Notes: generated from the sequence alone by a model not told the origin. A stretch of DNA of 64,000 nucleotides from Candidatus Latescibacterota bacterium (GCA_965243025.1 CBDETY010000003.1:4064001-4128000), one strand, 5' to 3'. Shown: positions 15,546-56,905, counted from the first letter of the stretch. A program made the numbers and translations.

Positions 15546-16277
15546 TCAGAAGTGGTTCCGCATCAGGTGCGTGATCTCATTGGCGCGGCAGTAAAACCTG
15601 GCAGTTTCCGCATCCTCCGACCGGCAGAGACGGCGGGGAAAGATGGTGTGGTTGGCCATCGCCGGCTGTGAACTTCGCCCGATCCAGCAGTGGACGGAAC
15701 GACGCTCCTCTGCGGTCTTCCTGAAATTCAACGCGTGGAGAATCGCCCCGTTGCACAGGATTGCGGTGCCCGGTTCTCCGGTTATGTGGACCGCCGAATC
15801 CAAGTCATAATCCTCGATGGGTGGGAACTCCCGACCTTGTGAGCTTCCGGGGATCACGCTGAAGCAATGAGTATCGTCCCCTACCCGCGTCAGGTAGATG
15901 ACCAGATGCAGCAGGTAGGTGTAGCAGGGAGGCGACATCGGCCTGGTCCCGTCCCGGTGCCATTCGCACTGTGACGGGCCGTCCGGATTCGGCGGCCGGA
16001 TAACGACCTCATGCTGGTCGGCGCAAAGGTCCGCCCCCATGATTCCTTCCATCAAGGGAACCAACCCCGGCGGTCGCATGGTCACGTCGAACTCCGGACG
16101 GGACAACAACACGAGACTGTTGCGCACACCGGGGTAATGCCCGCGACGCCACAGCCGCCGGTTCTCCCTCAGGTCCGCGTCGATGGCGGCGTTGATTTCG
16201 CCGACTTCCTCGAGGCTGAGCGAGTCCGGGATTACGCAGTACCCGTCCCGAGCGTAGTCGGCCAGCTGGTTTTTCAT
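15546..16277 (-). CDS. PhyH family dioxygenase
   Basis: YARDGYCVI, WHRD, FSVIPGS, ILHA. Confidence 0.8.
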   Translation of the reverse strand: MKNQLADYARDGYCVIPDSLSLEEVGEINAAIDADLRENRRLWRRGHYPGVRNSLVLLSRPEFDVTMRPPGLVPLMEGIMGADLCADQHEVVIRPPNPDGPSQCEWHRDGTRPMSPPCYTYLLHLVIYLTRVGDDTHCFSVIPGSSQGREFPPIEDYDLDSAVHITGEPGTAILCNGAILHALNFRKTAEERRSVHCWIGRSSQPAMANHTIFPRRLCRSEDAETARFYCRANEITHLMRNHF

Positions 16278-16300
16278 GGTTCACCGATGTGAAGGGGGGT

Positions 16301-17054
16301 TCATCCGCCTCGGACGGCATCAGGCGTGAATGCCAAAAGGATGGTGTCGGAGAACATCCGCCAAACCACGGCAACCTCGTCAAATCCGGCCCGGTCCATC
16401 GTCCTGATCAGGTCCTCGGAGGCATGGCCGTATTCAACGTCCTTTCCGGCGGCCTTCATCTTTCGCTTGAAATCCATCCGGGCGTCGATCTCCGCCCGGG
16501 TAGCTTCCCCGGAAGCGATTGCCCGTTGGAAGTGAAGCTGACGGAAGCGGGACGACTGCATGCGGACCTTCTCTCCCGGAGCGGGTCCCATGCTCATCGC
16601 GTCGAACAGGATGAAACAGCCACCGGGACTCAGCGCGCCAGCGATCCTTGCAAACAGCGCCGGGAGATCGTCCGGATTCACGTGGTGAATGGCTTTGGCG
16701 GAAATTGCAAGGTCACACCCCGGGATTTCACAGTTGACCATGTCGGCTTCCCCCCCCACCACCCGGCGCGAATGCATCTCGAGCTTCTTTCTCCGCGAGA
16801 GAAAGCATCTCCGGTTCGCTGTCCATACAGGTCCCGGTGGCGTTCGGGAACCGTTCCAGCACACGTGCGGTCGGTTCCGCCGTACCGCATCCAAGTTCCA
16901 CGAACTTGAAGGTATCGTTCGGATCAAAGGGGATGAGATCCACCATCATCTCCAGACCCTTGCTGTAGGGCGGGCTCAGAATGGGTTGAAGCCGATCATA
17001 CGACTCCGCGACAGCTGCGAAATACTCGCCACTTACAGTTGGCTGAAAATCCAT
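16301..17054 (-). pseudogene. Class I SAM methyltransferase, frameshifted
   Basis: VELGCGT motif I in ORF 16728-17054; continuation (CDLAISAKAIHH..LSPGGCF) in ORF 16301-16927; shift near 16790. Confidence 0.75.
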
Positions 17055-17109
17055 GTTCCATTCTTTCCGGCGGACGCTTTCCGATCACCAGGGATTCCTG
17101 AGTCGTGGT

Positions 17110-17694
17110 TCATGCGGTGCCCGGACAGCTCTTTTGGGTTGAACCCTGCGTTCTGTCCCGCTCCAGAGTGTCGAGGAACCTGGCCACATCGCCATTGGAC
17201 TGCAGGATCACGACCCTCTTTTCGTTCATCACCCCTTCCAGCAGCTGCAATACGCCCGGCAAACGCGTCTTCGGGTAGTCCCAGATCCACTCGAGGAATT
17301 CGCGATCCGGCAGCTTCTCGATGCAGCCAGGATGCAGGTCCGGACGACTGCGTCCCCTGCCTTTGAACCCCCGCTTGAACACCCGGTACAAACAGGTGAA
17401 CCGAGACAGGGCCATCAGGATTACCGTGTCGCTGGCGGCTATCCGTTCCTTCATGGTGCCGCCGTAGTTGCCGTCCATTATCCAGGACTCGCGAGCGAGA
17501 AGTTCCCGATGCCGGCGTTGCCATTCCTCCGGCGGGGGCCTTTCCCAGTCGGGTCCCCAGAAAACGGAATCGAGGTGGATGACCGGCAGATTCAGCAGGG
17601 ATCCCAGTTCGACGGCCAGGGTAGACTTTCCCGCACCGCCGCAGCCGATAATCGAGACCTTTCGCATTTGATAGCCGGAACGCTCTGAGTCCAT
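17110..17694 (-). CDS. P-loop kinase, topology-modulation (FlaR)-like
   Basis: IIGCGGAGKST, IHLD, WIMDGNY, EFLEWIW. Confidence 0.85.
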   Translation of the reverse strand: MDSERSGYQMRKVSIIGCGGAGKSTLAVELGSLLNLPVIHLDSVFWGPDWERPPPEEWQRRHRELLARESWIMDGNYGGTMKERIAASDTVILMALSRFTCLYRVFKRGFKGRGRSRPDLHPGCIEKLPDREFLEWIWDYPKTRLPGVLQLLEGVMNEKRVVILQSNGDVARFLDTLERDRTQGSTQKSCPGTA

Positions 17695-17786
17695 GCCGGA
17701 GAGCTCTCTCCCGCCTACCGAATCGGCATCATCTTGCGGCTCCTGGCCCGGTCATTGTGGCAGCGACCGTCCAGCGCCTGGCCATG

Positions 17787-18482
17787 TCATGGCGCCTTCC
17801 CTGCGATCGAACGGATCGCCGAAGGCAGGGACTCCAGGTCCGTAATAGTGGCATCCGGGAGCTCATCCGGAACCCGCGGCTCGAGGGCGGCGTACCTGCC
17901 CTGCCGGAACCATACGGTCCGGAGCCCCAGCCTTTTTGCCGGGATGATATCGTTGTCCAGGCGGTCGCCGATCATGACCGCTTCCGAGGGGGAACATCCG
18001 GCGCGTTCGAGGATTGTGCGGAAGAAAGCTTCGTCAGGTTTCTTGATCCCCAGACTTCCCGACACCTCCCTGTGGCGGAACCAGCGCAACACCCCCAGTT
18101 CGTCCAGGTTCTCCGTGATCCTCGCCGGGGCGTTGCCGGCCAGCGCAAGCGTGTACTCTTTGGCCAGCTGTTCGAGGACCGCCGCGATTCCGGGATGCAA
18201 CCTGAACCCGAGAGCCCAGATTTCCGGATAGTGTGACCGCACTTTCCTGGTGATCTCGTTGAACAGGCGCACGTCGGGCCTGGCATAATGCCAGGTTATG
18301 GCGTGCATGGGACTCGGGACGAACTGCCGCATTTTTTCGTGATCGAGCTGCCGGTATTCTTCCGTCGACAGCTCGAAGCCAAATCTGGCAAGAGCAGCTC
18401 GATGCGCCTCCTGCAGGACTTCCTGGTGCCCCGGGGTGTCCAGAATGGTCTCCCCGACATCGAACAGCAGCAAAGAAATCAT
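17787..18482 (-). CDS. HAD-family hydrolase
   Basis: LFDVGET, KKPD, MIGDRLDNDI. Confidence 0.9.
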   Translation of the reverse strand: MISLLLFDVGETILDTPGHQEVLQEAHRAALARFGFELSTEEYRQLDHEKMRQFVPSPMHAITWHYARPDVRLFNEITRKVRSHYPEIWALGFRLHPGIAAVLEQLAKEYTLALAGNAPARITENLDELGVLRWFRHREVSGSLGIKKPDEAFFRTILERAGCSPSEAVMIGDRLDNDIIPAKRLGLRTVWFRQGRYAALEPRVPDELPDATITDLESLPSAIRSIAGKAP

Positions 18483-19330
18483 CGCACTTTCCGGTTGATT
18501 TTCGGCAAGTGTCCCCGGCGGGCAAGCAGGACAACCGTACCACCGCCATTCTCCCTGCGCTCTTCCCAGATCAATTCAGATGACAGAAATCCCGCCTCCC
18601 GCAAAACAGCGGTGTGCTCCTCGAGGCTGAGGGTGACGTCGTAGTTCCAACCTGACCGGTCTCCATCGGGCAGCTTTGAAACGTAGTCGTGGAAAACATG
18701 ATCGTCTTCAAACCGGTCGCCCGGATGGGCAGATTGATCCCCTTCGACAAGAAACCCGTTTGGCTTCAGGGCTCGAAGAATCCTGGTATAGACCACTTTT
18801 CGATTCGGCGGCGGAAGGTGGTGAAGAGCGAGTATGGAGATAGCATAATCGAAGGCTTGTTCACCCATGTCGATGTCAAGACAGTTCCCGTGAATCAGGG
18901 AAATCTGATCCATATGGTTTGAAAACTTCCGCTGCAGGCGTTCAAGCATTCCCCTGGCTATATCAATACCGGTGACATGGGCATGTGGCGCCCTTTTGAA
19001 GAGATATGGCAGCGCCAGTCCAGTTCCACATCCGACATCCAGCACCTTCAGTTTTTCTTTGGTTTCCGGAATTTGACCAAGGACCGCTTCATAGAACGGA
19101 TCAACCTCTTCGGGAATCCCGAATTTCTCATCCCAGACTTCCGCAGTTGCGCTGAAAAACTCTTCGAGATGCTGCATTCCTCCATCGAGCATCCAATCCG
19201 GCAGGACGGCGTTCTCCGGTATGGGGGCCCTGGTCACCCTTCCGGCGATTTCTTCGAACCTCTGATTGACTCTTTCTCTGTCTGTAACTTCTTCAACCAC
19301 GTGCTTTCTCTTTGTTAATACTTTGCCCAA
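18479..19330 (-). CDS. Class I SAM methyltransferase
   Basis: VLDVGCGTG, TGIDI, LALHH, LKPNG. Confidence 0.85.
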   Translation of the reverse strand: MGKVLTKRKHVVEEVTDRERVNQRFEEIAGRVTRAPIPENAVLPDWMLDGGMQHLEEFFSATAEVWDEKFGIPEEVDPFYEAVLGQIPETKEKLKVLDVGCGTGLALPYLFKRAPHAHVTGIDIARGMLERLQRKFSNHMDQISLIHGNCLDIDMGEQAFDYAISILALHHLPPPNRKVVYTRILRALKPNGFLVEGDQSAHPGDRFEDDHVFHDYVSKLPDGDRSGWNYDVTLSLEEHTAVLREAGFLSSELIWEERRENGGGTVVLLARRGHLPKINRKVR

Positions 19331-19396
19331 TCTCTTTTAGGCAACCTCCTGGCGGCTTCCGGAGGGCGATGCCACTCGGCGAAACGTCGTGGATGG

Positions 19397-20777: not shown

Positions 20778-20890
20778 CCCTGCCGGACTCTAGCCTGGAC
20801 TGCGAAACGTGAACCGACAACAACTAGGCATACGACGAAGAGTTTTCCGAACAATTTCCCTTTCTCCTATTCTCCTGGTATCAACCCATC

Positions 20891-22101: not shown

Positions 22102-22126
22102 AAACTACCCGGAAGCCTTCAGGCCC

Positions 22127-22573: not shown

Positions 22574-22592
22574 ATTCCTCGTTTCCCCGCGT

Positions 22593-24099: not shown

Positions 24100-25461
24100 C
24101 TACGGCATTGCAGCTATCTCGGACACCTCGAACGCAACCTCGGAATCGTGCGCGTACAGCAGCACCCGGTCGCCGCACTGTTCCGGACAACGATCGATGA
24201 GCGTCCTGCGGCCGTCGATGCAAACGTCAACGATGTCGTCCCTGAGAACTACCTCCAGGGAGAAGGGGCGGTCCAGCCCATCGACCCCAAAAATCCACTG
24301 ATCGTTCAGGCTGGCGACCCGGTCACAGGGTGAGAAGCGCAGGTCGTACCCGGAGTCGAACGTCTCACCCGCCCTGAGACGAAGCCCGAAATCATGGGAG
24401 GCGGCCCGAGGAAGAACGCGGATTGCCAGCCGCGCGTTGTGCGGAATGCCTGGGCACCTGGCCGCTGCCAGGCCTTGCCGGGCTGCCGCGTGGACCCTGC
24501 GTCCCTCAACTCTCGTATCGGCATCGAGCGCGGACAGTTTCAGAGCGGACAACGGCTCACCGCCGGGGGTCAACTCGCCCGGAAACTTCGCACCAAGGGT
24601 GCCGTCGTCATGTTGGATCAGTTCCCGGAAAACGGCGTTGCCTCCCCACTGGAACGGTCCATCGTCCCGGTTGTTCTCGCGTGTGCCGATCCAGGCAACG
24701 CCAAGGCGTCTGCCTTCCCCGAACGGCGCTGTCTTCATTACCCGTGCCGCATCTCCGTCAATGGCGTCGACCTGCGGCCGAAGCCAGGGTCCGAACGGCT
24801 CTCGCGACATTCTGTAGCGGGCGACGCCGCGGTTGCTGAAAAGGAGATAGTACCAACCGTTCCAGAAGAAATAGTCCGGACATTCGGGCGCCCCCGGCAG
24901 ACCCGGGACGATGAACGGCTTCCTGTTCTCCCAGTGTTTCAAGTCGGGTGAGACCAGGTGGGCAAGGCACCCGCCGCGATCGATGATGGGCCAGTCTTCC
25001 AGCCACGCGGTAACGAGCATGTGGAACAGCCCCTCACTGCGATCCTGGAAGACGAACGGGTCACGGTAATGGACCGGGTCGTAGCCGGGAGGCGGCGAAG
25101 CGAAGGGGTTGGGTTCGGCCTTCTCGAAGCGGACGCCGTCGTGACTGGCGGCAAGACCCAGGTGCTGCGTCCGGTCGCGCATTCGCGTCGCGTAGAATCC
25201 GTAGTATGTCCCCTCGTGGAAGAACACCGAACCGGTGCAGATGGAACCTTCACGTTCCTCGGTGATCGGGATGGCGAGCGGATGGTGGTCCCAGTGAACG
25301 AGGTCCGTCGTGCTGGCCTGTGCCCACTGATGGCCTCCCAACCCGCCGAGCGCCCCGTGGTGGCCTTCGTCCAGAAGGTAGAAGAGCCGGAAGACACCAT
25401 CGTGGCAGAAGGGCATGCAGTCGCCGACGAAGAAGTCGCCGTCAGGTGTGAAGTATTGCAT
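24100..25461 (-). CDS. Glycoside hydrolase family 32-like protein
   Basis: GDCMP, STTDLVHW, CTGS, YRDP and PECPD motifs. Confidence 0.85.
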   Translation of the reverse strand: MQYFTPDGDFFVGDCMPFCHDGVFRLFYLLDEGHHGALGGLGGHQWAQASTTDLVHWDHHPLAIPITEEREGSICTGSVFFHEGTYYGFYATRMRDRTQHLGLAASHDGVRFEKAEPNPFASPPPGYDPVHYRDPFVFQDRSEGLFHMLVTAWLEDWPIIDRGGCLAHLVSPDLKHWENRKPFIVPGLPGAPECPDYFFWNGWYYLLFSNRGVARYRMSREPFGPWLRPQVDAIDGDAARVMKTAPFGEGRRLGVAWIGTRENNRDDGPFQWGGNAVFRELIQHDDGTLGAKFPGELTPGGEPLSALKLSALDADTRVEGRRVHAAARQGLAAARCPGIPHNARLAIRVLPRAASHDFGLRLRAGETFDSGYDLRFSPCDRVASLNDQWIFGVDGLDRPFSLEVVLRDDIVDVCIDGRRTLIDRCPEQCGDRVLLYAHDSEVAFEVSEIAAMP

Positions 25462-26000: not shown

Positions 26001-26762
26001 CTACCCTGTCCTCAGAAGCTTCCTGGCGGATTCAGGCCAGTCTCGCTTGAGCTCGGGGGCTATCGGAAATCGCTCGTGCGCATGAGGGAACACCCGCACG
26101 TAGCAAATGTCGAGCATCGGACGAATGGTGTCGCTTCTGTTCGGCGTACGAGCGTGCCACAGCCGCATGTCACGCAACAGCAGGGAGCCCATGGGCATGG
26201 TCGCCTGCAACGATGGAAGGTGTCTCCCCCGCTCTCCGAGATGCCTTACATCCGATGGAGGGTTGTCCAGGATAAGGTGTGAACCGGGCCAGATCCTGGT
26301 GGCTCCATTTTCCAGGCTGAAATCGATCAACGGAATGTCAACGTACACACCTGAGACTGGAAGAACGCACGACAGTTCGGGAAACAGGTGGTCTCCATCT
26401 CGGTGAGGGTCGCGTTCAGCTTGTTCACCGGCGCTGTCCGGTGGAGAGGCGTGAATCAATACCAGAGCCAAAGCGGTCTTCTTGCCCATCGCGGCTTCCA
26501 GCACCTGAAGAGCGAAGGGGTTGGCGAGAAGCTCATGCCGGAGAAATGGCATTTCCATGGGCGACCGGATCTCCCGGCCCCTGCCATTCTCGATTGCCTC
26601 GAAAAAGGCGGATTGCACTTCCTCGACAATCTCGAGAGGCACGGCGTTCTCGAGGATGACGACGCCAGCTTCGCGCAGATGCCGGAGAGCGAGTTTCCCG
26701 GTCGATTCACACATGCTTTCCGAAACTCGCTCCTGATCAGTGATCTTGATGCGCATCTTCAA
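26001..26762 (-). CDS. PhyH family dioxygenase
   Basis: PHRD, ENGATRIWPGSH, RLWHA.TPN.S...RPML. Confidence 0.85.
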   Translation of the reverse strand: MKMRIKITDQERVSESMCESTGKLALRHLREAGVVILENAVPLEIVEEVQSAFFEAIENGRGREIRSPMEMPFLRHELLANPFALQVLEAAMGKKTALALVLIHASPPDSAGEQAERDPHRDGDHLFPELSCVLPVSGVYVDIPLIDFSLENGATRIWPGSHLILDNPPSDVRHLGERGRHLPSLQATMPMGSLLLRDMRLWHARTPNRSDTIRPMLDICYVRVFPHAHERFPIAPELKRDWPESARKLLRTG

Positions 26763-30647: not shown

Positions 30648-31436
30648 TCAATGCCCGGTTCTGGTAATTCGTTGTGTAATGACAATCCGGGGCGCACTGC
30701 CGCAGTTCGGAGCCGCGGCATGGAAGATCCAGGGGTGCATGAGTATGACATCTCCGGCTTCGCCGGTGAACTCGACTGCCTTCACTGAAACCCCGTCAAA
30801 TCCGACCCCATTTCGCAGGTAGCGTTCCTCGCGGTCGACAGTGGGGTCGCGAGACCACAGGTCTCTCAGGCTGGGCACCGCCTTGTCAACGGCTTTCCGG
30901 ATGTCCCCGGAACGGCCTTCTCCGATAAGCTCCGGGTACTTGGCGAGGCGACGGACAAGCCGGTGCGACCCCGACAAAGCAACAGTTGCGCCCCCCTTGG
31001 GGACGAGCGGCTCCAGAATGGCGAAAACCTGAATACCGGGAATCTCGCCAGCTCCTGGCCAAACAGCGCAACCAGCCAGATCCAAATGCCACGATTTGTC
31101 AGGTAGAGACCAGGGACCTTTCGAAGGAAAGGAAATCAGAACGGATCCCCAAGGAACCGGCTTTTCCCAGCAGCCCGGCCCAAGCAGATCGTCTATCGCA
31201 TCCTGGACTGCGGGACTGCAAGTGGGGCCGAAAATTCCGGACCGGGCAAGTTTATTGATTCCCTTGGGGTTCATCGCGGGCCAGGTCTTGGGATCACCGC
31301 GGAGTGCCCCGCACCGCTGTTTCAGGTCCTCCCAAATCCGGGCAAGCACCAGTTCAACGTCTCCTTCTGGTACCGCCCCGCGAAGACGCAGAAAACCAAG
31401 ATGGTCAAATTGGGATCTCTCGGTCGGCGTCAACAT
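30648..31436 (-). CDS. PhyH family dioxygenase
   Basis: FDHLGFL, WHLD, GSH, GDVILMHPWIFHA. Confidence 0.85.
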   Translation of the reverse strand: MLTPTERSQFDHLGFLRLRGAVPEGDVELVLARIWEDLKQRCGALRGDPKTWPAMNPKGINKLARSGIFGPTCSPAVQDAIDDLLGPGCWEKPVPWGSVLISFPSKGPWSLPDKSWHLDLAGCAVWPGAGEIPGIQVFAILEPLVPKGGATVALSGSHRLVRRLAKYPELIGEGRSGDIRKAVDKAVPSLRDLWSRDPTVDREERYLRNGVGFDGVSVKAVEFTGEAGDVILMHPWIFHAAAPNCGSAPRIVITQRITRTGH

Positions 31437-36865: not shown

Positions 36866-36941
36866 AGCTAACGTTTTCTCGCCCTTGAATCGCGAAGCGG
36901 TCTGGCGAAGATCCGAATGGGGCAAGGTCATGGTGTTAATC
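36866..36941. repeat. attC-like site
   Basis: AGCTAACGTT ... ATCGCGAAGCGGT ... GGCGAAG ... GTTAATC. Confidence 0.7.
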
Positions 36942-37412: not shown

Positions 37413-37604
37413 GACTCCTTCATCGCCCCAAATTCACCTGACCTTCTACGAATTGCGGACCTGCGAAGCAGGTTGCCGAAGGACAAGGCGCCCCCTGGGC
37501 GATGCACAAGCCGATCAGTCATCGGCTGAGGGCTTCTATCAAGACTCTTTACCCCACCCGAACAGGACACGGGCTTTTTTCGCCGCGTGGAGTCATTCTC
37601 ATAA

Positions 37605-38338: not shown

Positions 38339-38423
38339 GCCCAACGTTTTCGCCGTGTCCGAACCGCCACAGCAGTTGCGCCAAGGTGCGACAGCCCTAA
38401 ACCCGGGCAGGACAGTGTTATGT
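38339..38423. repeat. attC-like site
   Basis: GCCCAACGTT...GTGTCCG / CGGGCAG...GTTATGT; stop codon of adjacent gene lies in the box. Confidence 0.8.
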
Positions 38424-40514: not shown

Positions 40515-40605
40515 GCTTAACGTCTGTCGATCCACGAATCTCCAAAGCAGGTTGCTCGCAGGACCAAGGCGCGCCCGCGCCGCAGGGAGTATCGAAATGT
40601 TTCCA
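40515..40605. repeat. attC-like site (degenerate)
   Basis: GCTTAACGTC..TCGAT / ATCGA..GTTTCCA. Confidence 0.65.
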
Positions 40606-41252: not shown

Positions 41253-41347
41253 TGATAACGTTTTATCGGTTTGGAAAGGCCTCTCCCCAAGCGGTGCCCA
41301 AGGCCAAGGCGCCATTGGCGCCGTAGCTGAAAATCGTGCTGTTATTC
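41253..41347. repeat. attC-like site of the cupin cassette type
   Basis: TGATAACGTTTTATCGGTTT...GTTATTCGATGTG; both ends resemble the site at 51282-51378. Confidence 0.75.
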
Positions 41348-41410: not shown

Positions 41411-42220
41411 TTATTTGTCAGCGCTCGTGTGTATTTCACAGGCCCTCATGAACCTCGGCACGTCAGCGCAGTTCGTTGACCGACAGTGCATCAGGAGTGG
41501 ATGGCCGATCATGGCGTCACCGGGCTTCCCGGTCAACTCAATGATGCGGACGGGAAATCCATTAACATCAGTCGTTTGATCCATCAACCGGCTGACGCGA
41601 GTAATGGGGTTCTCGCTTGCTTGGGTCAGTTCCATGAGCCATGGATGAGTGCTGAAGAACCTTTTCTTGATTTTCCTGCCGTTCCGGGAAAACAAGCTCT
41701 TCTCTTGCGTACGGTAGAAGTGCCTTATCAACCGATGACTCCCGTCGGCTATGTGCGTTCCACCGCCGTGAGATCGGACCTCGGTAATGAACGAGAAATT
41801 CAAAAGCCCATCAAGCTTTTCTACGTTGCGGAAGCCCGAGTTGTGCCAGTGCCAATTCCGGCTGGCGACATTCCACTGTTCATCGAGGGCTTCGGGAAAC
41901 GAGAACACAAGACTGCCCCAGTCTCGGGGTTTCTCCCAACAACCCTTTTCCAACAGCTGATCAATTGCTGATACGAATTTCGCTGATACTGCATCGCGAA
42001 ATACGCGGGTAGATCGAACCGTACGGCTCAGCCCACCTGTCTGATTACGCTCCCAGGTGGCGAGGTCGTTCCGCATGATACCATGCCGTTCCAACCAACG
42101 CCAGACAATGTCCTCCATCTGCCGGCAGTCCACTGGATCAAATGCACCGGGAAAAATGATGTAGCCATGTGTCTCGAAGTGGTCGAGGTCATCCTGTGAG
42201 AGAACTTTTTCTTCTGCCAT
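41411..42220 (-). CDS. PhyH family dioxygenase
   Basis: FETHGY, WHWH, GGT.IADGSH, GDAMIGHP.LMH. Confidence 0.8.
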   Translation of the reverse strand: MAEEKVLSQDDLDHFETHGYIIFPGAFDPVDCRQMEDIVWRWLERHGIMRNDLATWERNQTGGLSRTVRSTRVFRDAVSAKFVSAIDQLLEKGCWEKPRDWGSLVFSFPEALDEQWNVASRNWHWHNSGFRNVEKLDGLLNFSFITEVRSHGGGTHIADGSHRLIRHFYRTQEKSLFSRNGRKIKKRFFSTHPWLMELTQASENPITRVSRLMDQTTDVNGFPVRIIELTGKPGDAMIGHPLLMHCRSTNCADVPRFMRACEIHTSADK

Positions 42221-42269
42221 TATACTTGGTGGAGGCAAGATTACATCCAGCGGTAGTTATTCCATTTCA

Positions 42270-42356
42270 GGTAAACATTTCGCCGGTTTTCAAATCTGCG
42301 AATCGGGTTGCCGAAGACCATGGAGCGTACCTACGTAGCGCAATTCGCTGTTGGAC
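42270..42356. repeat. attC-like site (degenerate)
   Basis: GGTAAACATTTCGCCGGTTT..GGTTGCCGAAG..CGTAGCGCAA..GTTGGAC. Confidence 0.6.
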
Positions 42357-42936: not shown

Positions 42937-43344
42937 TCAGTCGGTTAAATGGTTCTCGTCCATGTCGCCTAACGTCTCCCGGTCTGCGACCCGCGCAGCC
43001 GGTTGCCGAAGGCCAACCGTGACCTTGTCGGCCTTCGCCGCCTCTCCTTGCAAACCTGGCGTATGGAGGACAAAGTGGTAATGGTCCTCGGAACAGGACA
43101 AGAACGTGTGCACCTCCCGCGGTTCGATGATGACGCCCGATTTCTCGGCAAAGTATAACTCCTCACCTTCGACAAGCATTGTGGCGTCGCCCTGCGCAAA
43201 CAGATAGATCTCGGTGGTAGTTTTATGGGAATGGGGTTCATTTATGGCGATGTTCGCATAACCGATCGAAATGTTAAGGTCTGAGTCCCAAGGCCCTACA
43301 AACCAGCCCTTGTCCATGTTTGTATCCGGCTCAATGATTCTCAC
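42937..43344 (-). CDS. Cupin protein, copy 2 (stop lost, reads into half attC)
   Basis: Near-identical to 51390-51725; HSH...TEIY, EP.EVH. Confidence 0.75.
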   Translation of the reverse strand: MRIIEPDTNMDKGWFVGPWDSDLNISIGYANIAINEPHSHKTTTEIYLFAQGDATMLVEGEELYFAEKSGVIIEPREVHTFLSCSEDHYHFVLHTPGLQGEAAKADKVTVGLRQPAARVADRETLGDMDENHLTD

Positions 43345-43373: not shown

Positions 43374-43455
43374 GAATAGGTTTCGCCATGCACCAAGCGG
43401 CGAACCAGTTGGTGAAAACGCGCCAGCGCAAAAGCCGGACACGGACGTGTTATAT
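43374..43455. repeat. attC-like site
   Basis: GAATAGGTTTCGCC...CGGACAC..GTTATAT. Confidence 0.65.
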
Positions 43456-45398: not shown

Positions 45399-45478
45399 AG
45401 GTAATGTTTGTGCCCCCCGCACCGCGAAGTGGTTGGGCGAAGGGCCGAATGGTTCAAAGACGGGGCACGATGTCAACC
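45399..45478. repeat. attC-like site, close homolog of 51755-51833
   Basis: Shared GGTTGGGCGAAGGGCCGAATGG core and GTGCCCC/GGGGCAC arms. Confidence 0.85.
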
Positions 45479-45546
45479 GCTGCTTTGTCCTCGGGTAACG
45501 AACGGATCGCGATTCAACCGCGACATTACTACGATTTCCCCCTTGT

Positions 45547-45631
45547 GGTTAACGTTCCCGCTGTGCACGAACTGTCGCAGGCAGTTGGGCGAAGGCCGAA
45601 TTGACCGAAACCGCACACGGGCTTGTTGTCG
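45547..45631. repeat. attC-like site
   Basis: GGTTAACGTTCCCGCTGTGC..TTGGGCGAAGG..GCACACGGG..GTTGTCG. Confidence 0.8.
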
Positions 45632-47698: not shown

Positions 47699-47792
47699 GC
47701 TTGATGTTTCGCCGGTTTGCGAACCTGCCGAAGCGGGCGCAGGTTGGGGCCGAGGCGCGAATGCGCCGGAGCCGCTGCCGGGCGTGTCAGGC
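47699..47792. repeat. attC-like site (degenerate)
   Basis: GTTTCGCCGGTTTGCGAAC resembles left arm of 55249 site; ends GTCAGGC. Confidence 0.65.
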
Positions 47793-47810
47793 GAAGCGGA
47801 ACTGATCGAA

Positions 47811-49439: not shown

Positions 49440-49531
49440 AAGGGATTACAGGACAGTAGCGGGAACTGCAGTGTCTTAATCGTGAGCATTGCACAGTCAA
49501 TCTGAATAGACAGGCTCATTCTTTGCCATGT

Positions 49532-49619
49532 CTATATAGTTCTCGCCGTGCTCAAGCTGACGTAGCCAGTTACGGCGAAGGCGTCTCCGCGCCGTAGCCG
49601 GGCACCGTACGCGTTATAT
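49532..49619. repeat. attC-like site, left box degenerate
   Basis: TCTCGCCGTGCTC..GGCGAAGGCG..CGTAGCCGGGCAC..GTTATAT. Confidence 0.65.
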
Positions 49620-49704
49620 GAAGGCGATGATTTACCCTCTATGTTTCAAGGGCGACCCTTAAGAGAATTCGACCTAACCTCCATCGAATTCTCTGAGATC
49701 GAGT

Positions 49705-50502: not shown

Positions 50503-50575
50503 TTTTTTTGCCCGTTAGGGTCAAGGAGGGTAAACGCCGCAGCGGGAATGGACGTGTCAGCAAACCGTTTCAGAT

Positions 50576-51250: not shown

Positions 51251-51281
51251 ATATCGCCTCCACTGCCAATGCTTGAATGTC

Positions 51282-51378
51282 TGCTGCCGTTTATCGGTTT
51301 GCGGACCCCGAGTTTGGCGAGGGGTTGCCGAAGGCCAAAGCCCCAAAAGCCCCGCAGAGCAGCACCGTGATGTTATTC
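51282..51378. repeat. attC-like site
   Basis: CGTTTATCGGTTTGCGG..GGTTGCCGAAGGCC..CCGCAG..GTTATTC. Confidence 0.75.
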
Positions 51379-51389
51379 GATGTGATCAA

Positions 51390-51725
51390 TCACGCAACCC
51401 TGACTTTGTCGTTAACCGCTGCCTCTCCCTGCAAACCTGGCGTATGGATGACAAAGTGGTAATGGTCCTCGGAACAATACAAGAACGTGTGCACCTCTCC
51501 AGGTTCGATGATGACGCCAGATTTCTCGGCAAAGCTAAACTCCTCGCCATCGACAAGCATCGTGATGTGGCCGTGCGCAAACAAATAGATTTCGGTGGTA
51601 GACCTGTGATAATGGGGTTCGTTTATGGCGGTGTTTGCATATCCGATTGAAATGTTCAGATCTGAGTCCCAAGGTCCAACAAACCAGCCCTTTTCCATTT
51701 TATTATCCGGCTCAATGATTCTCAC
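51390..51725 (-). CDS. Cupin protein, copy 1
   Basis: HYH...TEIY and EPGEVH cupin motifs. Confidence 0.8.
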   Translation of the reverse strand: MRIIEPDNKMEKGWFVGPWDSDLNISIGYANTAINEPHYHRSTTEIYLFAHGHITMLVDGEEFSFAEKSGVIIEPGEVHTFLYCSEDHYHFVIHTPGLQGEAAVNDKVRVA

Positions 51726-51754
51726 TTGCTTTGGCCTCCAGCTCGTTGCATTTC

Positions 51755-51833
51755 GAATAACGTTTCAGTGCCCCGCATCGCGAAGCGGTTGGGCGAAGGG
51801 CCGAATGGCCCAAGCCGGGGCACCATGTTAGAG
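51755..51833. repeat. attC-like site
   Basis: GAATAACGTTTCA GTGCCCCG ... CGGGGCAC CAT GTTAGAG; TAA of adjacent gene inside the box. Confidence 0.9.
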
Positions 51834-52406
51834 GACGTGGCTTCCCTCAACGCTCGCTGGAAATCGTCTATCGGACTCGTTCGCATGAGATGCAAGCCAG
51901 GCCTTCTTTGTCAGTAAGAACTGACGTGCTGCTTCCCCCTTGAACTTGGAACTATTGTAGACAAACCCTTCAGTCTCCTGAAAGCCGTTTTTTTCGAGGA
52001 CACGGGCTGATCCAGGATTTCGCCTTAAGCAGGCGGAGCGAACGGTTTCCATTCCGAGCTCGAGGAAGGCATACCGTAGTGCCAAAGAAACGGCCTTGGT
52101 TGTAATTCCCTTTCCCCAGTAGGCCGAGGCAATGGCGTAATCGCATTGGATGCTACCGCTCTCCAAATCACTTCCCCCTAATTCAACGACTCCTATCATC
52201 TCTCCGTCGGCAACGATGGCAAAGAAGAAACCCGCTCCGTTTCGGCGGGCATCAACGGCCTGTTCCACAAACCTTGCAGCGCCATCCTCTGGATAGGGCT
52301 CGGGAATCGTAGTGGTTCGTGCTACCCGCTCATCAGAGGCGTAACGTTGGACCGCCGGTTCGTCGCCAATCCGCAGTGGCCGGATTGTAACCTTTAGTTC
52401 TGTCAT
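51828..52406 (-). CDS. GNAT N-acetyltransferase (RimJ/RimL type)
   Basis: IPEPYP, YWGKGIT, NPGSARVLEKNGF. Confidence 0.9.
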   Translation of the reverse strand: MTELKVTIRPLRIGDEPAVQRYASDERVARTTTIPEPYPEDGAARFVEQAVDARRNGAGFFFAIVADGEMIGVVELGGSDLESGSIQCDYAIASAYWGKGITTKAVSLALRYAFLELGMETVRSACLRRNPGSARVLEKNGFQETEGFVYNSSKFKGEAARQFLLTKKAWLASHANESDRRFPASVEGSHVL

Positions 52407-53143
52407 CGTCTCCTTCCCATGTCCTCTAACTGATTGCCATTCACGAAGCCGCGTAGCGGCTGTCGAGGGATCTTACACTGGGCCTCAAGGTGGCGAAGAT
52501 CGTCCTGATCCAGACTGCAATCGTTGCTGTGGACGTACGAATCCAGATCCATTAGAATCAATCGATGAAAACGAGCATCCAGTGCTCTCAATCCCCACTC
52601 TCCGGCCTCTATCTTGGTGCAGAGACGGCGTTCCGCCAAGGTAAATGCAACGCGGCAAAACATCAGCGCAGGATTCTTGAAGTGGGTCCGTATCTGCGGA
52701 ACAACGTGCCGAATGCACTGCCGCAGTAAAGGCCACGGAACGCGTTTCAGAATCCTGTTGTGAGGTGTACCGAGAAGATCCCTCCCTGATTCAAAAATAT
52801 CTTGCCTCAACAAGAGAAAATCTTTGCTACCATCAGGCTTGAGGACAATTGTATTGTTCATCTTGAGAAGGAAATCAACAGGAGTGGGGAAAACGTCGGC
52901 GTTGATATGGTCTATCGTTGCTGCTGTTATGTCGTAAGACAGAGACTGTGATTTTACGTGTTCCAGGAGATGCACCCTTTTCTCCGACGGAGTGGGACGC
53001 TTCGTGACAAGAAGAAGGTCAACATCACTCGTCTCAGGATTGCCAGACTCCCGAGCGCGTGAGCCACCCATCCAAACCGATTCCAGTTCTCCTTCGTAAA
53101 TCTCACCGAGTCCCTCCACAAAGCCATCTATTGCACTTCTCAT
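52403..53143 (-). CDS. Nucleotidyltransferase resembling aminoglycoside adenylyltransferase (DUF4111) family; C-terminus altered
   Basis: GGS....G...SDVDLL, L.FCR......LCTK.EAG.W; final codons derive from a half attC. Confidence 0.7.
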   Translation of the reverse strand: MRSAIDGFVEGLGEIYEGELESVWMGGSRARESGNPETSDVDLLLVTKRPTPSEKRVHLLEHVKSQSLSYDITAATIDHINADVFPTPVDFLLKMNNTIVLKPDGSKDFLLLRQDIFESGRDLLGTPHNRILKRVPWPLLRQCIRHVVPQIRTHFKNPALMFCRVAFTLAERRLCTKIEAGEWGLRALDARFHRLILMDLDSYVHSNDCSLDQDDLRHLEAQCKIPRQPLRGFVNGNQLEDMGRRR

Positions 53144-53257
53144 GGCAAGAATTACCGGGGAGAAATGAATCGGGCTCCTGTCCGACCTCTATCTAACATC
53201 GAGGAAGCATATCCTGGAGTGATGTCAATATGGCCAGCTTCACTTATATGCGATGAC

Positions 53258-53339
53258 ACCTAACGTTTCAGTGCCGCCGAACCGCGCAGCGGTTGGGCGA
53301 AGGGGCTCTTGTCCCGAAGCCGGGGGCACGGTGTTACAT
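53258..53339. repeat. attC-like site
   Basis: ACCTAACGTTTCA GTGCCGCCG .. ACCGCGCAGCGGT TGGGCGAAG .. CGGGGGCAC GGT GTTACAT. Confidence 0.9.
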
Positions 53340-53376
53340 GAAGTGCGCTGATACCCTGCGATATCGGATCCGATGC

Positions 53377-53958
53377 TTAACCGCTTCCTATGCCTGAAAC
53401 AACGACGCAAACAGCACTGGCAGTGTCGATATGGGTCAGATAGTAGTCTTCCGCTGCCCTCCATCTCCGAATCCATTCGTCTGTGTTTTCACCTCGCTTG
53501 ACCAGCCTATCCAAACATTCGGCCTTGGGAGTGTCGACGAAAATGGAGAAGCCATAGAAGTTCCTCAATTCCGGCCGATAAGAATAGACCCCATCGATCA
53601 GTATGATGCCCTCAGCCGGTTGGTCAATCCACTCCGCCAGCTGGTTGATCCCCCAATCATAGCGCTGGTAGCGAGTTCGATCTCCACCCGATAAAGGTTT
53701 AAGGAGTTCACTTCGCATCCTTACCCAATCAAAATACCTCATGTAACCATCTTCAGGCGTTAGAGCCCTTCTCTCAGACTCCCCCATTGGAGTATAGAAG
53801 TCATCCCCGTGAACGATTGAGATGAGATTACATGTCTCGCTTAGTTTCCTGGCGATGGTTGACTTTCCAGCTCCGCCGGGACCATCGAGTGCGACTACGA
53901 GAAGGCTATTCGAGCCCAATTCCGAGACAAGCCGCGATGAGAGAACATTAACGTCCAT
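53377..53958 (-). CDS. Uridine kinase-like P-loop protein
   Basis: VALDGPGGAGKST, HGDDFY, YQRYDW, LIDGVYS. Confidence 0.88.
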   Translation of the reverse strand: MDVNVLSSRLVSELGSNSLLVVALDGPGGAGKSTIARKLSETCNLISIVHGDDFYTPMGESERRALTPEDGYMRYFDWVRMRSELLKPLSGGDRTRYQRYDWGINQLAEWIDQPAEGIILIDGVYSYRPELRNFYGFSIFVDTPKAECLDRLVKRGENTDEWIRRWRAAEDYYLTHIDTASAVCVVVSGIGSG

Positions 53959-53998
53959 GTCGTGTCAGCGTCTATTGCAGATGTCGATCAAGCATTTC

Positions 53999-54083
53999 AT
54001 ATATCGTTCCGGGCGGGCTGCGAACCCGCGCAGCGGGTTGGTGCGAAGGCCAATGGCCGGTCCGCAGCCCGGCGTAGTATGCG
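53999..54083. repeat. attC-like site with ATC core
   Basis: ATATATCGTT..CGGGCTGCG / CGCAGCCCG perfect arms; internal CCCGCGCAGCGGG hairpin. Confidence 0.8.
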
Positions 54084-54108
54084 GCGTTTCTCACGCCCTT
54101 TTTACCCC

Positions 54109-54474
54109 TCAACGAATACTTGAGGCACAATCCAAAAAGGTCTCTGCATCCAAATCGAAACTGGGAGTATGGAGGAGGAGTAGAGTCGCGTCTTCATCGG
54201 ATGAATTCTCGTATGAAAAACTTTGACCTTGCTGGACGAGACAAAAGTCGGCGCCTTCGAGCCGATACTCCTTCCCCTCTATCGTGAAGAGGACTATTCC
54301 ATTCAAAACGTAGTAGTACTTGTCAGAGCGCTCCGACCTTGCCTTCCGATGACCTCTGCCAGGACCAACTTTTATTTTGGCAAGCGAGGAACTGATATTC
54401 ACACCTGAGGTGTAGTCGAATATCTGAAGGCCTTCGAATTCAATCGGAGCTACCGCCGAAGAGTTCACTACCAT
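54109..54474 (-). CDS. Cupin domain protein
   Basis: YYYVLNG...F.IEG..Y.L..ADF. Confidence 0.75.
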   Translation of the reverse strand: MVVNSSAVAPIEFEGLQIFDYTSGVNISSSLAKIKVGPGRGHRKARSERSDKYYYVLNGIVLFTIEGKEYRLEGADFCLVQQGQSFSYENSSDEDATLLLLHTPSFDLDAETFLDCASSIR

Positions 54475-54540
54475 TTGTGGGTCCTTGATGGCACTGGGGT
54501 TGGAATTTCAGAAGTCCTTAGAGGACGTAAATTAAATGCC

Positions 54541-54630
54541 GTATAACGTCTCACAATTCACGGAGTCGCGAATGCGACTTGCCGCAGCCCCAGCGCCGAG
54601 AGGCGCGTAGCGGGAATTGCTGTGTTATAT
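54541..54630. repeat. attC-like site
   Basis: GTATAACGTCTCA CAATTCACG ... CGGGAATTG CTGT GTTATAT. Confidence 0.88.
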
Positions 54631-54643
54631 GAAGTGGAGGACA

Positions 54644-55219
54644 TCACTTGCGTTCAGCCATTCGATCGAAGGCATTCGGACGGCTTCGGGTGTTCCAAGC
54701 ATCGACTACAGCTGCTGCGATAGCTTCGCTCGGCTGCGTCGAGTCGACCTCCAGATCGTACTCGATGAAACTGTGAACTATGTGAAAGTCCGCTCTGGCT
54801 TCTCCAGGTCCCCGGTCTCCTCTGGTGCGCTCCCTTCGCTCTAGCTCTGAGAGCGGACAGTGCACCCCGACGACGAAAACATCAAAAGCGGAAAGAAGAT
54901 CTAACAAATCTGACAACCACTCCTCGGTCTCGACTATGTGGTCAACGATGAGATTGTTGCCTGCACCGGCCAAAACCGGAAGACAACGGTGAAACCCATC
55001 GAATACCGCTGGCCGCATGGCTGGCCAATCGAGTTCACGATTGAGTATTCGGGACCATGGCAGAGCGTTGGAATCACGCAGATGGTCAAACGAAAAATGC
55101 CAAAAAGGAACTTCCAAGGTTTGCTGGAGGAGACGTGCGAGCGTCGACTTTCCTGCACTTGATGCGCCGTTTATGAGAATGATCTTGCCCTGGTCTCGAT
55201 CGTTATCCAAGTGTATCAA
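54644..55219 (-). CDS. Chloramphenicol phosphotransferase-like (CPT) kinase
   Basis: IILINGASSAGKST, GNNLIVD, VGVHCP..ELERRE..RGDR, YDLEVDS. Confidence 0.88.
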   Translation of the reverse strand: MIHLDNDRDQGKIILINGASSAGKSTLARLLQQTLEVPFWHFSFDHLRDSNALPWSRILNRELDWPAMRPAVFDGFHRCLPVLAGAGNNLIVDHIVETEEWLSDLLDLLSAFDVFVVGVHCPLSELERRERTRGDRGPGEARADFHIVHSFIEYDLEVDSTQPSEAIAAAVVDAWNTRSRPNAFDRMAERK

Positions 55220-55248
55220 GAATCCTGTTCAGCTTTTTAACTCATGTC

Positions 55249-55347
55249 ATATAACGTTACGCCGGTTTGCGAACGCCGAGTCAGTCGAGGCGTTGCCGAA
55301 GGCCAAGACGCCCGAAGGGCGGCGCAGCGCAAAACGTGCTGATATTT
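55249..55347. repeat. attC-like site with GAT right box
   Basis: ATATAACGTTACGCC GGTTTGCG ... CGCAAAAC GTGCT GATATTT. Confidence 0.85.
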
Positions 55348-55374
55348 GACGTGGGCAAGGTCTATAGATTGCTG

Positions 55375-56163
55375 TCAAAAAAGAATTTCGCCCCGCAGAT
55401 AGGTTACTGCCTGACCTCCGATCTCGACGCGATCTCCGCGGTCTTCACAATGCAAAACGCCACCACGCTCTGATACTTGCTTCGCCGTCATCCTATGTTT
55501 GTTTAGGCGAGTCGACCAATAAGGAATCAACGTGGTATGGGCTGAACCCGTCACTGGATCCTCGGGTATCCCCGATTGCGGAGCGAAAAATCGCGAAACG
55601 AAATCCACCTCATTCCCCGGGGCTGATACGATTATTCCGCGGGATTGAACTTGCTTGATGCGGGCAAAGTCAGGAGATAGGTTGCTAACTTCCCTCTCTG
55701 AATCGAGAATGGCGAGAAAATCAGCGCCACCTCGATAGAGTTCCAATGGTTCCCTGCCGAGCCCCTCGCAAAGATCACTTGGACAATTGTCTACCGCGGA
55801 AAACTGATCAGTTGGAAAGTCGAGCCAGATACGACCCTTTGACTGTCGCACGCGAAGGGGCCCAGACCGGGAATCGAATACAAGACTCTCTTGATTGTCC
55901 TGTTGTTCGAACAGGACATGGGCGGCGGCCAGGGTCGCGTGGCCACAAAGATCGACTTCAATCGTAGGCGTAAACCAACGAATGGAGATCGGGTCGGAGT
56001 TGCGGAATACGAAGGCAGTCTCGGCAAGGTTGTTCTCTGCGGCAATGTGCTGCATTGTGGTTTCTGGAAGTAAATCATCGCAAAGAACGATAGCAGCCGG
56101 ATTTCCTGAGAATGGCTGTTCGGAAAATGCATCGACTTGGTAAATTGGGAGTTGCATCACCAA
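55375..56163 (-). CDS. PhzF family epimerase/isomerase (first cassette)
   Basis: QVDAF..GNPAA, NLAETAF, EVDLCGHATLA, EDPVTGSAH. Confidence 0.93.
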   Translation of the reverse strand: MVMQLPIYQVDAFSEQPFSGNPAAIVLCDDLLPETTMQHIAAENNLAETAFVFRNSDPISIRWFTPTIEVDLCGHATLAAAHVLFEQQDNQESLVFDSRSGPLRVRQSKGRIWLDFPTDQFSAVDNCPSDLCEGLGREPLELYRGGADFLAILDSEREVSNLSPDFARIKQVQSRGIIVSAPGNEVDFVSRFFAPQSGIPEDPVTGSAHTTLIPYWSTRLNKHRMTAKQVSERGGVLHCEDRGDRVEIGGQAVTYLRGEILF

Positions 56164-56182
56164 TCCACTTCTCTTGCCCTAT

Positions 56183-56258
56183 GTCATATATCTGATTGCA
56201 TCCGAACAAATGGTTCGGATAATGATCACTGGATGGTACTTACCTGAAACGATGGTAC
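56183..56258. other. Candidate attI-like primary site
   Basis: GTCATATATC complements first cassette's far box; IR ATCCGAAC-N5-GTTCGGAT; direct repeat GATGGTAC twice. Confidence 0.55.
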
Positions 56259-56410
56259 GTGTGGGTGTGAACATTCGCAACCATTTCTTCCGTTCGCTGG
56301 GGTCGGCCTAACTCGTTGCGACTGTGACACATAGCCCGATCTCCGATCCCTGGTGCGACTGGCACGGTTTTCTCTACGGCAGGGCTGACTTCCCACTTGG
56401 AGAAACCCGA

Positions 56411-56905
56411 ATGCGGCGCTATCGGAGACACCGCGACCTGTCCGGCGACGAAGTCGCCATCCTCAACCGGTTCGAGTCCGAGCTGAAGCTGAGGGGGTAC
56501 GCGAGGAAAACGCAGAAGTCCTACATGGGTTGCGGCCGGCGATTCCTTCAGTGGAAACGGGACTTCCGCGGCGAACGGCAGAACCAGGTGCGATCAAGCG
56601 TACAGGCCGTCGACGTGGCTGTTTCCCGGTGCCCGGGAAGGACGGCATCCACCGAACGATCGGTACAGAAAGTGTTCTCCAAGGCGGTCGCCGCCGCGGG
56701 AATCCGCAAGCGGGTGACCGTGCACACCCTGAAACACAGCTTTGCGACGCACCTGCTCGAAGGCGGGACAGATCTGCGCTTCACCCAGGAACTCCTCGGC
56801 CACAGGAGCTCGAAAACGACGGAGATCTACACCCACGTGCAGCGGAAGGACCTGGTGCGGATCGAGAGTCCGCTCGACACCCTGCTGGGCTCCGCCCGGT
56901 CCTGA
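56411..56905 (+). pseudogene. Tyrosine recombinase (integron-positioned), internally deleted
   Basis: N-term [14 protein letters not shown] (SAM-like); C-term [40 protein letters not shown]; Box I absent; only 164 aa. Confidence 0.9.

Follow-up and report, generated by a model that had tools for sequence, protein, structure and literature searches.

We have analysed a 64,000-nt stretch of a Candidatus Latescibacterota genome (referred to below as the window; positions 4,064,001-4,128,000 of contig C3 in G000, a genome of 6.8 Mb in 3 contigs), which carries an array of gene cassettes bounded by attC-like sites and, at the head of this array, the remnant of a tyrosine recombinase gene. The recombinase is related to the integron integrase IntI and belongs to a clade that lacks the IntI-specific domain. 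Comparison with intact homologs found in related genomes suggests that recombinases of this short type are probably the cassette integrases of these arrays.

The platform that we propose would be a sedentary, chromosomal, integron-like one, composed of a short recombinase gene, an attI-like site directly upstream of it and a divergent cassette array. The cassettes would be promoter-less and carry single genes, each ending in an imperfect palindrome of 63-103 nt with TAAC...GTTA. At G|TT, the recombinase would recombine folded attC sites either with attI or with one another, circular cassettes being inserted at the head of the array and excised from the array. We infer that the short recombinase is catalytic, that it, rather than another enzyme, is the catalyst, and that a folded single strand is its substrate. 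In G000, the deletions in the enzyme, the decayed R boxes and a recombinase stump at a second array mark the platform as a fossil; intact copies of it persist in related genomes.

The cassette array of the window

A block of low GC content at ca. 15.1-56.2 kb lies between conserved flanks (0.52-0.62 across ca. 16-57 kb versus 0.66-0.72 in the flanks of the window). Open reading frame (ORF) and domain annotation of the window showed that most genes of the block lie on the minus strand and that they are single genes unrelated to one another. Both features had been reported in an initial annotation made from the sequence alone, as had stop codons inside the boxes of the palindromic spacers, which we also find: the TAA stops at 38,420-38,418 and 51,830-51,828 fall inside R'' boxes.

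Spacers were searched for with a covariance model, R1, that was built from ten clear window spacers and run with filters off. Because RNAalifold applied to a MAFFT alignment of the spacers gave only 4 pairs, the structure of R1 was set by hand. It contains only the R-box pairs and one inner hairpin, and R1 is therefore largely a lineage-specific sequence model, unfit for attC in general. Two other procedures were rejected: a pairing scanner anchored at AAC/GTT returned one false site only, since it disallowed an unpaired spacer, and automatic choice of R'' by folding energy selected the wrong boxes. An Rfam search of the window gave no match.

On both strands of the 64 kb, R1 retrieved 24 matches at E <= 10. 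All 17 matches with E < 0.05 are on the minus strand, between positions 36,866 and 55,347, and the best match beyond the block (9,921-9,993, plus strand) has an E-value of 0.093. No attC-like site was detectable by R1 at 15.5-36.8 kb, the sole match there (24,568-24,618) having an E-value of 0.53. Thus, the demonstrable array is ca. 19.4 kb long and has ca. 18 cassettes, less than half of the ca. 41 kb and 50 genes of the initial annotation. The distal 21 kb may consist of old cassettes with eroded sites.

A short recombinase related to IntI

The recombinase gene of the window is a pseudogene at 56,411-56,905 on the plus strand (ORF 56,324-56,905); it is oriented away from the array, as the initial annotation had described, with a conserved attI-like head between the two. 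Its product matches PF13495 (positions 1-33 of 85) and PF00589 (106-170 of 172, E 9.5e-19). The best curated family is that of integron integrases, TIGR02249, of which only positions 238-315 are matched, with 103.7 bits against a cut-off of 265. At the DNA level, the window gene differs from the gene of the related genome G011 by a 386-bp deletion (nt 186-571, codons 63-190) and a 1-bp deletion (nt 626). It retains codons 1-62 and ca. 209-293 of the intact homologs, with 18 out-of-frame codons between them, and its HxxR motif reads HTLKHSF versus HTLRHSF in the homologs, an Arg-to-Lys change. The window recombinase is a pseudogene, dead in G000; being an inactive remnant, it does not serve the array at present, and in this respect the initial annotation, which had the array served by it, does not hold.

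Homologs were sought in a family survey of 76 species genomes and a phylum survey of 168 genomes. Close homologs of the window recombinase (clade A, 76-94% identity) are present in eight genomes of the family survey, from five genera, and a second short clade (clade B, 51-54% identical) at seven loci. Intact homologs in related genomes are 293-314 amino acids long. The genes of G011, G013 and G015 are intact and encode Arg, Lys, HxxR, His and Tyr, which we take to be the catalytic residues expected of a tyrosine recombinase. The G014 gene has one in-frame TAA, those of G010 and G012 have frameshifts, and the G009 gene and a second copy in G015 are partial.

Ten homologs were compared with curated models. 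Against TIGR02249, with its cut-off of 265 bits, they reach only 181-247, and the alignment falls into two stretches with model positions ca. 180-237 left out between them. Against the XerC and XerD models TIGR02224 and TIGR02225 they score 131.7-183.2 bits, far below the cut-offs of 329.6 and 335.15. The IntI model outscores every Xer model for all ten homologs, one of which (P0009, 223.5 bits) lies above the 220-bit cut-off of the archaeal XerA model NF040815, the rest scoring 164-215.7. The best solved-structure match by sequence is the Vibrio cholerae integrase VchIntIA (2A3V), again in two stretches, between which there are 19 residues versus 61 in IntI4. About 41 extra amino acids are present at that position in all 12 canonical IntIs of the phylum and absent from clade A. 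In a predicted model of the homolog P0001 (predicted local distance difference test score of 71, from a shallow alignment) no helix is seen at residues 194-210, and a Foldseek search with this model retrieved 2A3V first (E 2e-16), ahead of archaeal XerA structures. These comparisons indicate that clade A is IntI-like and is without the IntI-specific (I2/patch III) domain. The absence of IntI hallmarks, which the initial annotation had noticed, is in the window first of all that of a deletion remnant, yet the intact homologs lack them too and are not ordinary IntIs.

Canonical IntIs of the family score 149-182 bits against P0001 and clade B proteins 267-307 bits; the short clade is therefore no recent deletion derivative of the IntI of the family. 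When a tree is rooted on two Xer sequences, the canonical IntIs group as a single clade (support 100), and the short forms together with IntI stand apart from Xer. The best tree places canonical IntIs among the short forms, and an arrangement with the short forms as one clade is also allowed (approximately unbiased test, p 0.35). The closest named relatives of the recombinase, at no more than 52% identity, come from Thermodesulfobacterium and from metagenome-assembled genomes (MAGs) of Gemmatimonadota and Firmicutes. At one locus (L119, G117:C1:2,492,064-2,496,008), a canonical intI gene is followed within ca. 300 bp by a short-type recombinase gene whose product scores 249.6 bits against P0001.

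The pairwise ratio of nonsynonymous to synonymous substitution rates (dN/dS) is 0.07-0.21 at dS values of up to 1.48, and 0.39 for the near-identical G011 and G012 genes. The recombinase gene is under long-term purifying selection. From the intact copies and the low dN/dS it follows that the gene was functional for most of its history and was lost repeatedly and recently.

The attI-like head

The head module (56,164-56,410, minus strand) is conserved in eight aligned heads, seven from different genomes and one from a second array of G000, over ca. 190 bp from the start codon to a 32-nt motif in which the head ends. In the window, this motif occupies positions 56,223-56,192 and contains the palindrome ATCCGAAC/GTTCGGAT and a terminal CAG; the first cassette adjoins it at G(56,192)|A(56,191). 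The two 8-9-bp arms of the palindrome are perfect inverted copies 5 nt apart, and the aligned heads part from one another 10 nt past the palindrome, the sequences after G|TTA diverging completely. The heads of G000, of G012 and of the second G000 array read GAT at the junction. This is the pattern expected of an attI-cassette junction.

A sigma-70 consensus, which is not valid for every lineage, had no match as a Pc promoter at 56,100-56,480. The head palindrome was also considered as a LexA box; its form, GAAC-N5-GTTC, does not support this, the elements upstream of recA and lexA being CTGAAC-N4-ATTCAG-like. G000 has two recA genes, and the latter palindromes, likely SOS boxes, lie upstream of one recA and of lexA (L153-L155).

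Further heads were searched for with a degenerate 32-nt pattern allowing up to two mismatches, since a BLAST-type search with the 251-nt head was insensitive and missed known heads. The pattern has 70 matches in 23 of the 76 family genomes, with several per genome, versus 3 for the reversed control; 16 of the 31 genomes of genus g12 have it. The attI-like head is thus a dispersed repeat, of which some copies stand in tandem a few kb apart (L139 has three heads in 10 kb, with no R1-type site within 20 kb). Among the orphan heads examined, those at L141-L145 have one R1-type site each on the expected side, and none has a recombinase gene. At L140 (G049), an R1-type site lies between two heads, and the 5' half of an attC is found directly upstream of a head. 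The homology of orphan heads to the main head stops 110-200 nt upstream.

attC-like sites and the exchange of cassettes

The boxes of attC are an inverse core, RYYYAAC, and a core, GTTRRRY. The minus-strand spacers of the window are imperfect palindromes that start with ...TAAC and end with GTTA..., each of the two being kept in only 9 of 18 window sites. In an aligned set of 90 attC-like sites from the window and its relatives, TAAC is present in 78 and GTTA in 77, and lengths are 63-103 nt. The R box runs 3 bp further, followed by a conserved C.A mismatch and 2 more bp. By crude alignment, and against a canonical set of only nine sites retrieved with a generic scanner, the two spacers of a site are typically 1 nt (5' side) and 5 nt (3' side), 61 of the 90 sites being asymmetric by +2 to +4 nt, and sites adjoining canonical IntIs of sister genera have spacers of ca. 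2 and 3 nt and two bulged bases. The claim that the sites depart from canonical attC is to be narrowed: the TAAC/GTTA R boxes are as in attC, and it is the spacer geometry and the extended R box that appear to differ.

Conservation beyond the 7-nt boxes was seen at C -1 (86 of 90 sites), C -4 (75), G +8 (84) and A +11 (79). Since an ATG stands at +11 in 28 of the 90 sites, the gene of many cassettes begins at a constant spacing from the crossover that leaves no space for a ribosome-binding site of its own.

The outer bases of R'' in one site and R' in the preceding one are complementary at all three positions in 44 of 78 adjacent pairs and at a mean of 2.23 positions; the corresponding means are 1.16 for the boxes of one site and 0.94 for randomly paired ones. 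The complementarity extends over six further positions (3.59 of 6 versus 2.59 of 6 for random pairs). Such end-to-start complementarity appears to be the footprint of circular cassettes recombined within GTT.

Close relatives differ by whole cassettes. The flanks of the G011 and G012 arrays are 94-96% identical, dS of the recombinase genes is 0.036 and the heads are shared; the arrays differ by whole cassettes at attI and attC. The first G012 cassette is the fourth G011 cassette (99% identity), and other site-bounded segments are present in one of the two genomes only. Two window cassettes are also found in G011, nearer its head, and one cassette shares 93.6% identity with a G014 cassette, although G014 is of a different genus.

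In contigs from public runs (X10, X11 and X12), the head is joined to the third G011 cassette, with the same 28 letters from the junction G. These contigs come from two studies; the best-matching runs, X7-X9, belong to a different one. In X10 and X11 the end of cassette 2 is, in addition, joined to the start of cassette 1 through four shared letters (GTTA). An exchange of attI x attC would be expected to yield just these two products, and another order of the array could equally account for them; the allele of the third cassette in the contigs is diverged, and circular forms cannot be seen in contigs. This analysis left out joints between attC copies whose sides were 20-32 letters long, as well as parts without cover. 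The cassettes behave as discrete units exchanged at G|TT.

Association of the recombinase with arrays

R1 was also applied to the DNA of relatives, the clade A loci searched being those on long contigs. There were 81 sites in 280 kb, all within nine of the 14 stretches searched. Upstream of clade A genes we found 5 sites in G011, 8 in G015, 5 in G013, 41 in G014, 13 in G010 and 4 in G012. Six of the seven close-homolog loci have their first site on the opposite strand, at 0.7-1.4 kb from the start codon; the second, partial G015 copy has 5 R1 sites, but at 12-19 kb from the gene. R1 gave no match in the 20 kb downstream of the G011 gene, in two stretches 20-40 kb out or in five further downstream stretches of 50 kb in total. 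The homologs are thus co-located with arrays, as the initial annotation had supposed. In the family survey, sites with E <= 1e-5 are present in 29 of 76 genomes, and seven of the eight clade A genomes carry 10-51 each.

Clade B genes head R1-type sites as well, in a co-directional layout, at three of three loci: G007 (L146), G010:C1 (L147) and a remnant in G006 (L149, G006:C2; remnant at 17,157-17,995), which heads a 30-kb array. Upstream of two clade B genes, R1 had no match.

Similar arrangements are seen outside the family. In an Ignavibacteriota MAG (L011, 11,119-20,175), at least nine sites of ca. 124 nt lie directly downstream of a short recombinase gene; they have a TAAC-A-stem...stem-4/5-nt-GTTA layout, and seven of eight adjacent R''/R' pairs are complementary. 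A Bacteroidetes MAG (L077, 12,414-15,003) has three attC-like sites of ca. 124 nt downstream of a short recombinase gene, and there are one or two sites at a Spirochaetota (L031) and a Flavobacteriales (L063) locus. None of these four genomes encodes a canonical IntI over the cut-off. It is possible, if somewhat doubtful, that cassette capture via folded attC may not need the IntI-specific domain and that a short IntI-like family runs integrons in several phyla. If so (two clades here, Ignavibacteriota and Bacteroidetes), canonical IntI would be a branch within the short family or its sister.

Several observations weigh against the short recombinase being the integrase of the arrays. Across the eight genomes, six of nine clade A copies are broken. 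Because the loci are related to one another and, within the genus, share a syntenic right flank, the seven are not seven independent events and may reflect one ancestral arrangement. R1 sites also occur where there is no clade A gene, namely in G006 (40 sites), G007 (10 sites) and 17 of the 31 g12 genomes. In five site-bearing g12 genomes that were checked, no clade A or clade B gene was found, the best matches being Xer-like at 42% identity, and most heads within a genome are orphans without a recombinase gene. Gene loss, as in G000, explains part of these recombinase-free sites and heads; one g12 genome (G042) has a 36-amino-acid remnant of a short recombinase. Completeness of the genomes is 84-96% and contamination 3-12%, so that a canonical intI could be missing from an assembly.

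At the 80 best relatives in named genomes, generic TAAC...GTTA scanners revealed no overall enrichment of sites, which likewise weighs against this role of the recombinase. The scanner gave 129 sites in real versus 306 in reversed control sequences, and a stricter version 34 versus 41, with a slight, weak excess just downstream of the genes (0.33 versus 0.13 per kb). In the stricter scan, two or more sites on one strand were found only at L011 (10) and L077 (3), the other loci having single sites. Since the generic scanners detect only 1-2 of the 17 window sites, absence in distant loci is uninformative.

Published views of the extra domain point in the same adverse direction. It was reportedly described by Messier and Roy in 2001 as needed for IntI activity. 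Passages of Cury et al. 2016 (PMC4889954) report 50 recombinases without the domain next to attC, of which four are intermediate in the tree and have fewer than three attC each, and judge such domain-less recombinases near attC not to be IntI.

Which enzyme moves the cassettes

In an alternative that we consider unlikely, the locus would be an ordinary integron, its canonical intI either gone or acting from another location, with the short recombinase as a bystander or replacement and the arrays as relics. Canonical IntI over the cut-off is present in 17 of the 168 phylum genomes, nine of which are in other genera of the same family. The site-bearing genomes G006 and G007 both have a canonical IntI elsewhere in the genome, together with the clade B copy or remnant; many arrays and heads are without a recombinase, and the attC-like sites of the window itself are decaying. 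However, no protein reaches the TIGR02249 cut-off in any of the eight clade A genomes (G000 and G009-G015). R1 has no match 13-20 kb upstream of five canonical intI genes, whose neighbouring sites appear to be of another geometry, and the G006 array is headed by the short-recombinase remnant, not by the canonical gene. Moreover, it is the short gene that has been kept by long-term purifying selection and that adjoins a conserved attI, with divergence exactly at G|TT, and there is recent turnover of cassettes in G011, G012 and the public contigs.

Quite improbable, in our estimate, is that XerC/D or an unrecognised host enzyme moves the cassettes and that the short recombinase acts only on the double-stranded palindrome of the head, as a resolvase or in array-level rearrangement. 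The perfect inverted repeat of the head with its 5-nt spacer resembles the double-stranded core site of a Xer-type enzyme, and g12 genomes retain heads and arrays with only Xer-like recombinases. Against this, the heads diverge not at the palindrome but 10 nt past it, at G|TTA, which matches the R' box of attC; the nearest relatives of the short recombinase, by sequence and by fold, are IntIs; and the short-gene remnant in g12 fits loss, not independence. A genomic island that is merely studded with repetitive extragenic palindromic (REP)-like repeats and has no cassettes is scarcely credible, for although R1-type elements also occur single and scattered in several genomes, the complementarity is between the ends of the same cassette and not within a site, all sites are on one strand in one orientation, whole-cassette differences between close relatives fall at sites, and the contig junction lies inside the shared GTTA.

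The short, domain-less recombinase thus remains our preferred cassette integrase. The core idea of the initial annotation holds once three points are corrected: how far the array extends, what state the gene is in here and how aberrant the sites are.

Cassettes and other genes of the window

The right chromosomal flank (56,910-64,000) is syntenic with G011 and G012 at 90-94% identity. Past the head, the first cassette has a PhzF-like gene (55,375-56,163, minus strand; PF02567, E 5e-61) and is followed by attC-like site 1 (55,249-55,347; R1 62.3 bits, E 3e-15); all sites are on the minus strand. The cassette of site 2 (54,541-54,630; 56.6 bits) carries a chloramphenicol-phosphotransferase-like gene (54,644-55,219, minus strand; PF07931, E 2e-46). 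Site 3 (53,999-54,082; 17.8 bits, E 0.032), whose R' is degenerate (GAT), belongs to a cupin cassette, and the cassette of site 4 (53,258-53,339; 72.8 bits) contains a P-loop kinase gene. Site 5 (51,755-51,833; 71.8 bits), with a TAA stop in R'', ends a two-gene cassette that encodes a nucleotidyltransferase with an AadA_C domain (52,403-53,143) and a GNAT (51,828-52,406).

Another cupin cassette ends in site 6 (51,282-51,378; 22.9 bits, E 0.001), which has lost R'. This cupin cassette is present twice, at 51,395-51,694 and 43,014-43,313, with 85% identity (repeat D1). Then come site 7 (49,534-49,619; 19.3 bits, E 0.012), with a degenerate R', site 8 (47,699-47,792; 34.9 bits), site 9 (45,547-45,631; 62.4 bits) and site 10 (45,399-45,478; 63.9 bits). 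The latter is only 68 nt past site 9 (45,478-45,547), and the cassette between them is therefore without an ORF. Site 11 (43,374-43,455; 12.7 bits, E 0.95) is weak and has a good R'' box, ATATAAC. It is followed by sites 12 (42,967-43,033; 30.5 bits), 13 (42,270-42,356; 52.6 bits), 14 (41,253-41,347; 42.2 bits) and 15 (40,515-40,605; 17.8 bits, E 0.031). The R'' of site 16 (38,339-38,423; 60.6 bits) includes the TAA stop of the upstream hydrolase gene. Site 17 (37,436-37,524; 32.1 bits) precedes site 18 (36,866-36,941; 66.3 bits), the last that could be detected.

The distal low-GC block (15,058-36,865, minus strand) consists of cassette-like single genes with no detectable attC. Its cargo is of the same kind as that of the array and includes GNATs, an isochorismatase, three PhyH proteins, methyltransferases, a sulfotransferase, GH32 and HAD proteins, and others. 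The part at 18.0-27.5 kb is conserved in the two other genomes of the genus, beyond the arrays of those genomes.

Genes of PhyH-type dioxygenases are found repeatedly, both in the array and distal block and in the conserved flank adjoining the recombinase gene, at 15,546-16,277, 26,001-26,762, 30,648-31,436, 41,411-42,238 (weak) and 56,910-57,788. Several cassettes have predicted products that resemble drug-modifying enzymes: the chloramphenicol-phosphotransferase-like protein, the nucleotidyltransferase with the AadA C-terminal domain together with its GNAT, and other acetyltransferases.

Elsewhere in G000, there are further sites. R1 has 25 matches at E <= 0.01 in the genome: the window accounts for 13, C3:3.06-3.09 Mb for 8 and 5.72 Mb for 3, with a single one at 3.03 Mb. 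The second array (C3:3,063,778-3,086,793; L136, L137) has 8 sites, all on the minus strand, an attI-like head of its own (L136 13,398-13,429) and a ca. 150-nt stump of the 5' end of a recombinase gene. A third cluster (C3:5,715,866-5,716,789; L138) has 3 sites on the minus strand, and no head motif was found in the 16 kb searched.

Implications

A conserved, selected, domain-less IntI relative heads arrays of up to at least 41 sites in genomes without a canonical IntI. If this enzyme is active, the extra domain would not be essential for attC recombination, and an origin of integrons from Xer-like enzymes could be tested on living intermediates. Integron surveys and censuses of the cassette pool would then undercount whole lineages, whose pool here includes genes resembling those of drug-modifying enzymes. 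Were the short family indeed to run integrons in several phyla, integrons would have a greater age and range than a definition by the domain admits, and some clusters of attC sites lacking an integrase (CALINs) would have an integrase that current tools discard.

Comparison with known systems

A full-text literature search, whose coverage is incomplete, retrieved no described integron headed by a domain-less integrase. In passages of Cury et al. 2016, Ghaly et al. 2022 and Ghaly et al. 2021, IntI is defined and sought by its extra domain. According to the passages of Cury et al. 2016 (PMC4889954) on IntegronFinder, an IntI call requires the intI_Cterm profile, and the locus described here would therefore probably be labelled CALIN, the category for two or more attC sites near which no IntI is called. 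It differs from a CALIN, as those passages present it (Cury et al. 2016), in having a conserved IntI-related gene and attI at its head. The clade B loci (G007, G010:C1 and the G006 remnant) and L011 are like the integrons with a co-directional layout mentioned there (Cury et al. 2016), except that the IntI domain is absent.

With XerC, XerD and archaeal XerA (TIGR02224, TIGR02225, NF040815; 4A8E, 5HXY) the short recombinases share a length of ca. 290 amino acids without an insert, and an N-terminal SAM-like domain followed by a catalytic domain. Unlike XerC and XerD, they score 132-183 bits against cut-offs of 330-335, and their context is cassette arrays, not a single dif site. Xanthomonas-type chromosomal integrons are said to descend from a canonical ancestral IntI, with intI since decayed. 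The likeness to these lies in a fossil array at a fixed chromosomal site whose integrase was inactivated independently in different lineages; the difference is that the ancestral enzyme there was a canonical IntI.

From canonical integrons, the system differs in a recombinase that is without the ca. 41-amino-acid domain and falls below the TIGR02249 cut-off, in the apparently asymmetric spacers (1 and 5 nt) and extended R box of its sites, and in the many orphan attI-like heads per genome. It resembles the V. cholerae VchIntIA system (2A3V) in its divergent integrase gene, adjacent attI and one-strand array of promoter-less cassettes. The two also have in common imperfect palindromes with TAAC/GTTA, a putative crossover at G|TT, complementary cassette ends and stop codons in R''. 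In both, attC sequences are lineage-specific and the cargo comprises small modifying enzymes, and VchIntIA is the solved protein closest to the recombinase described here.

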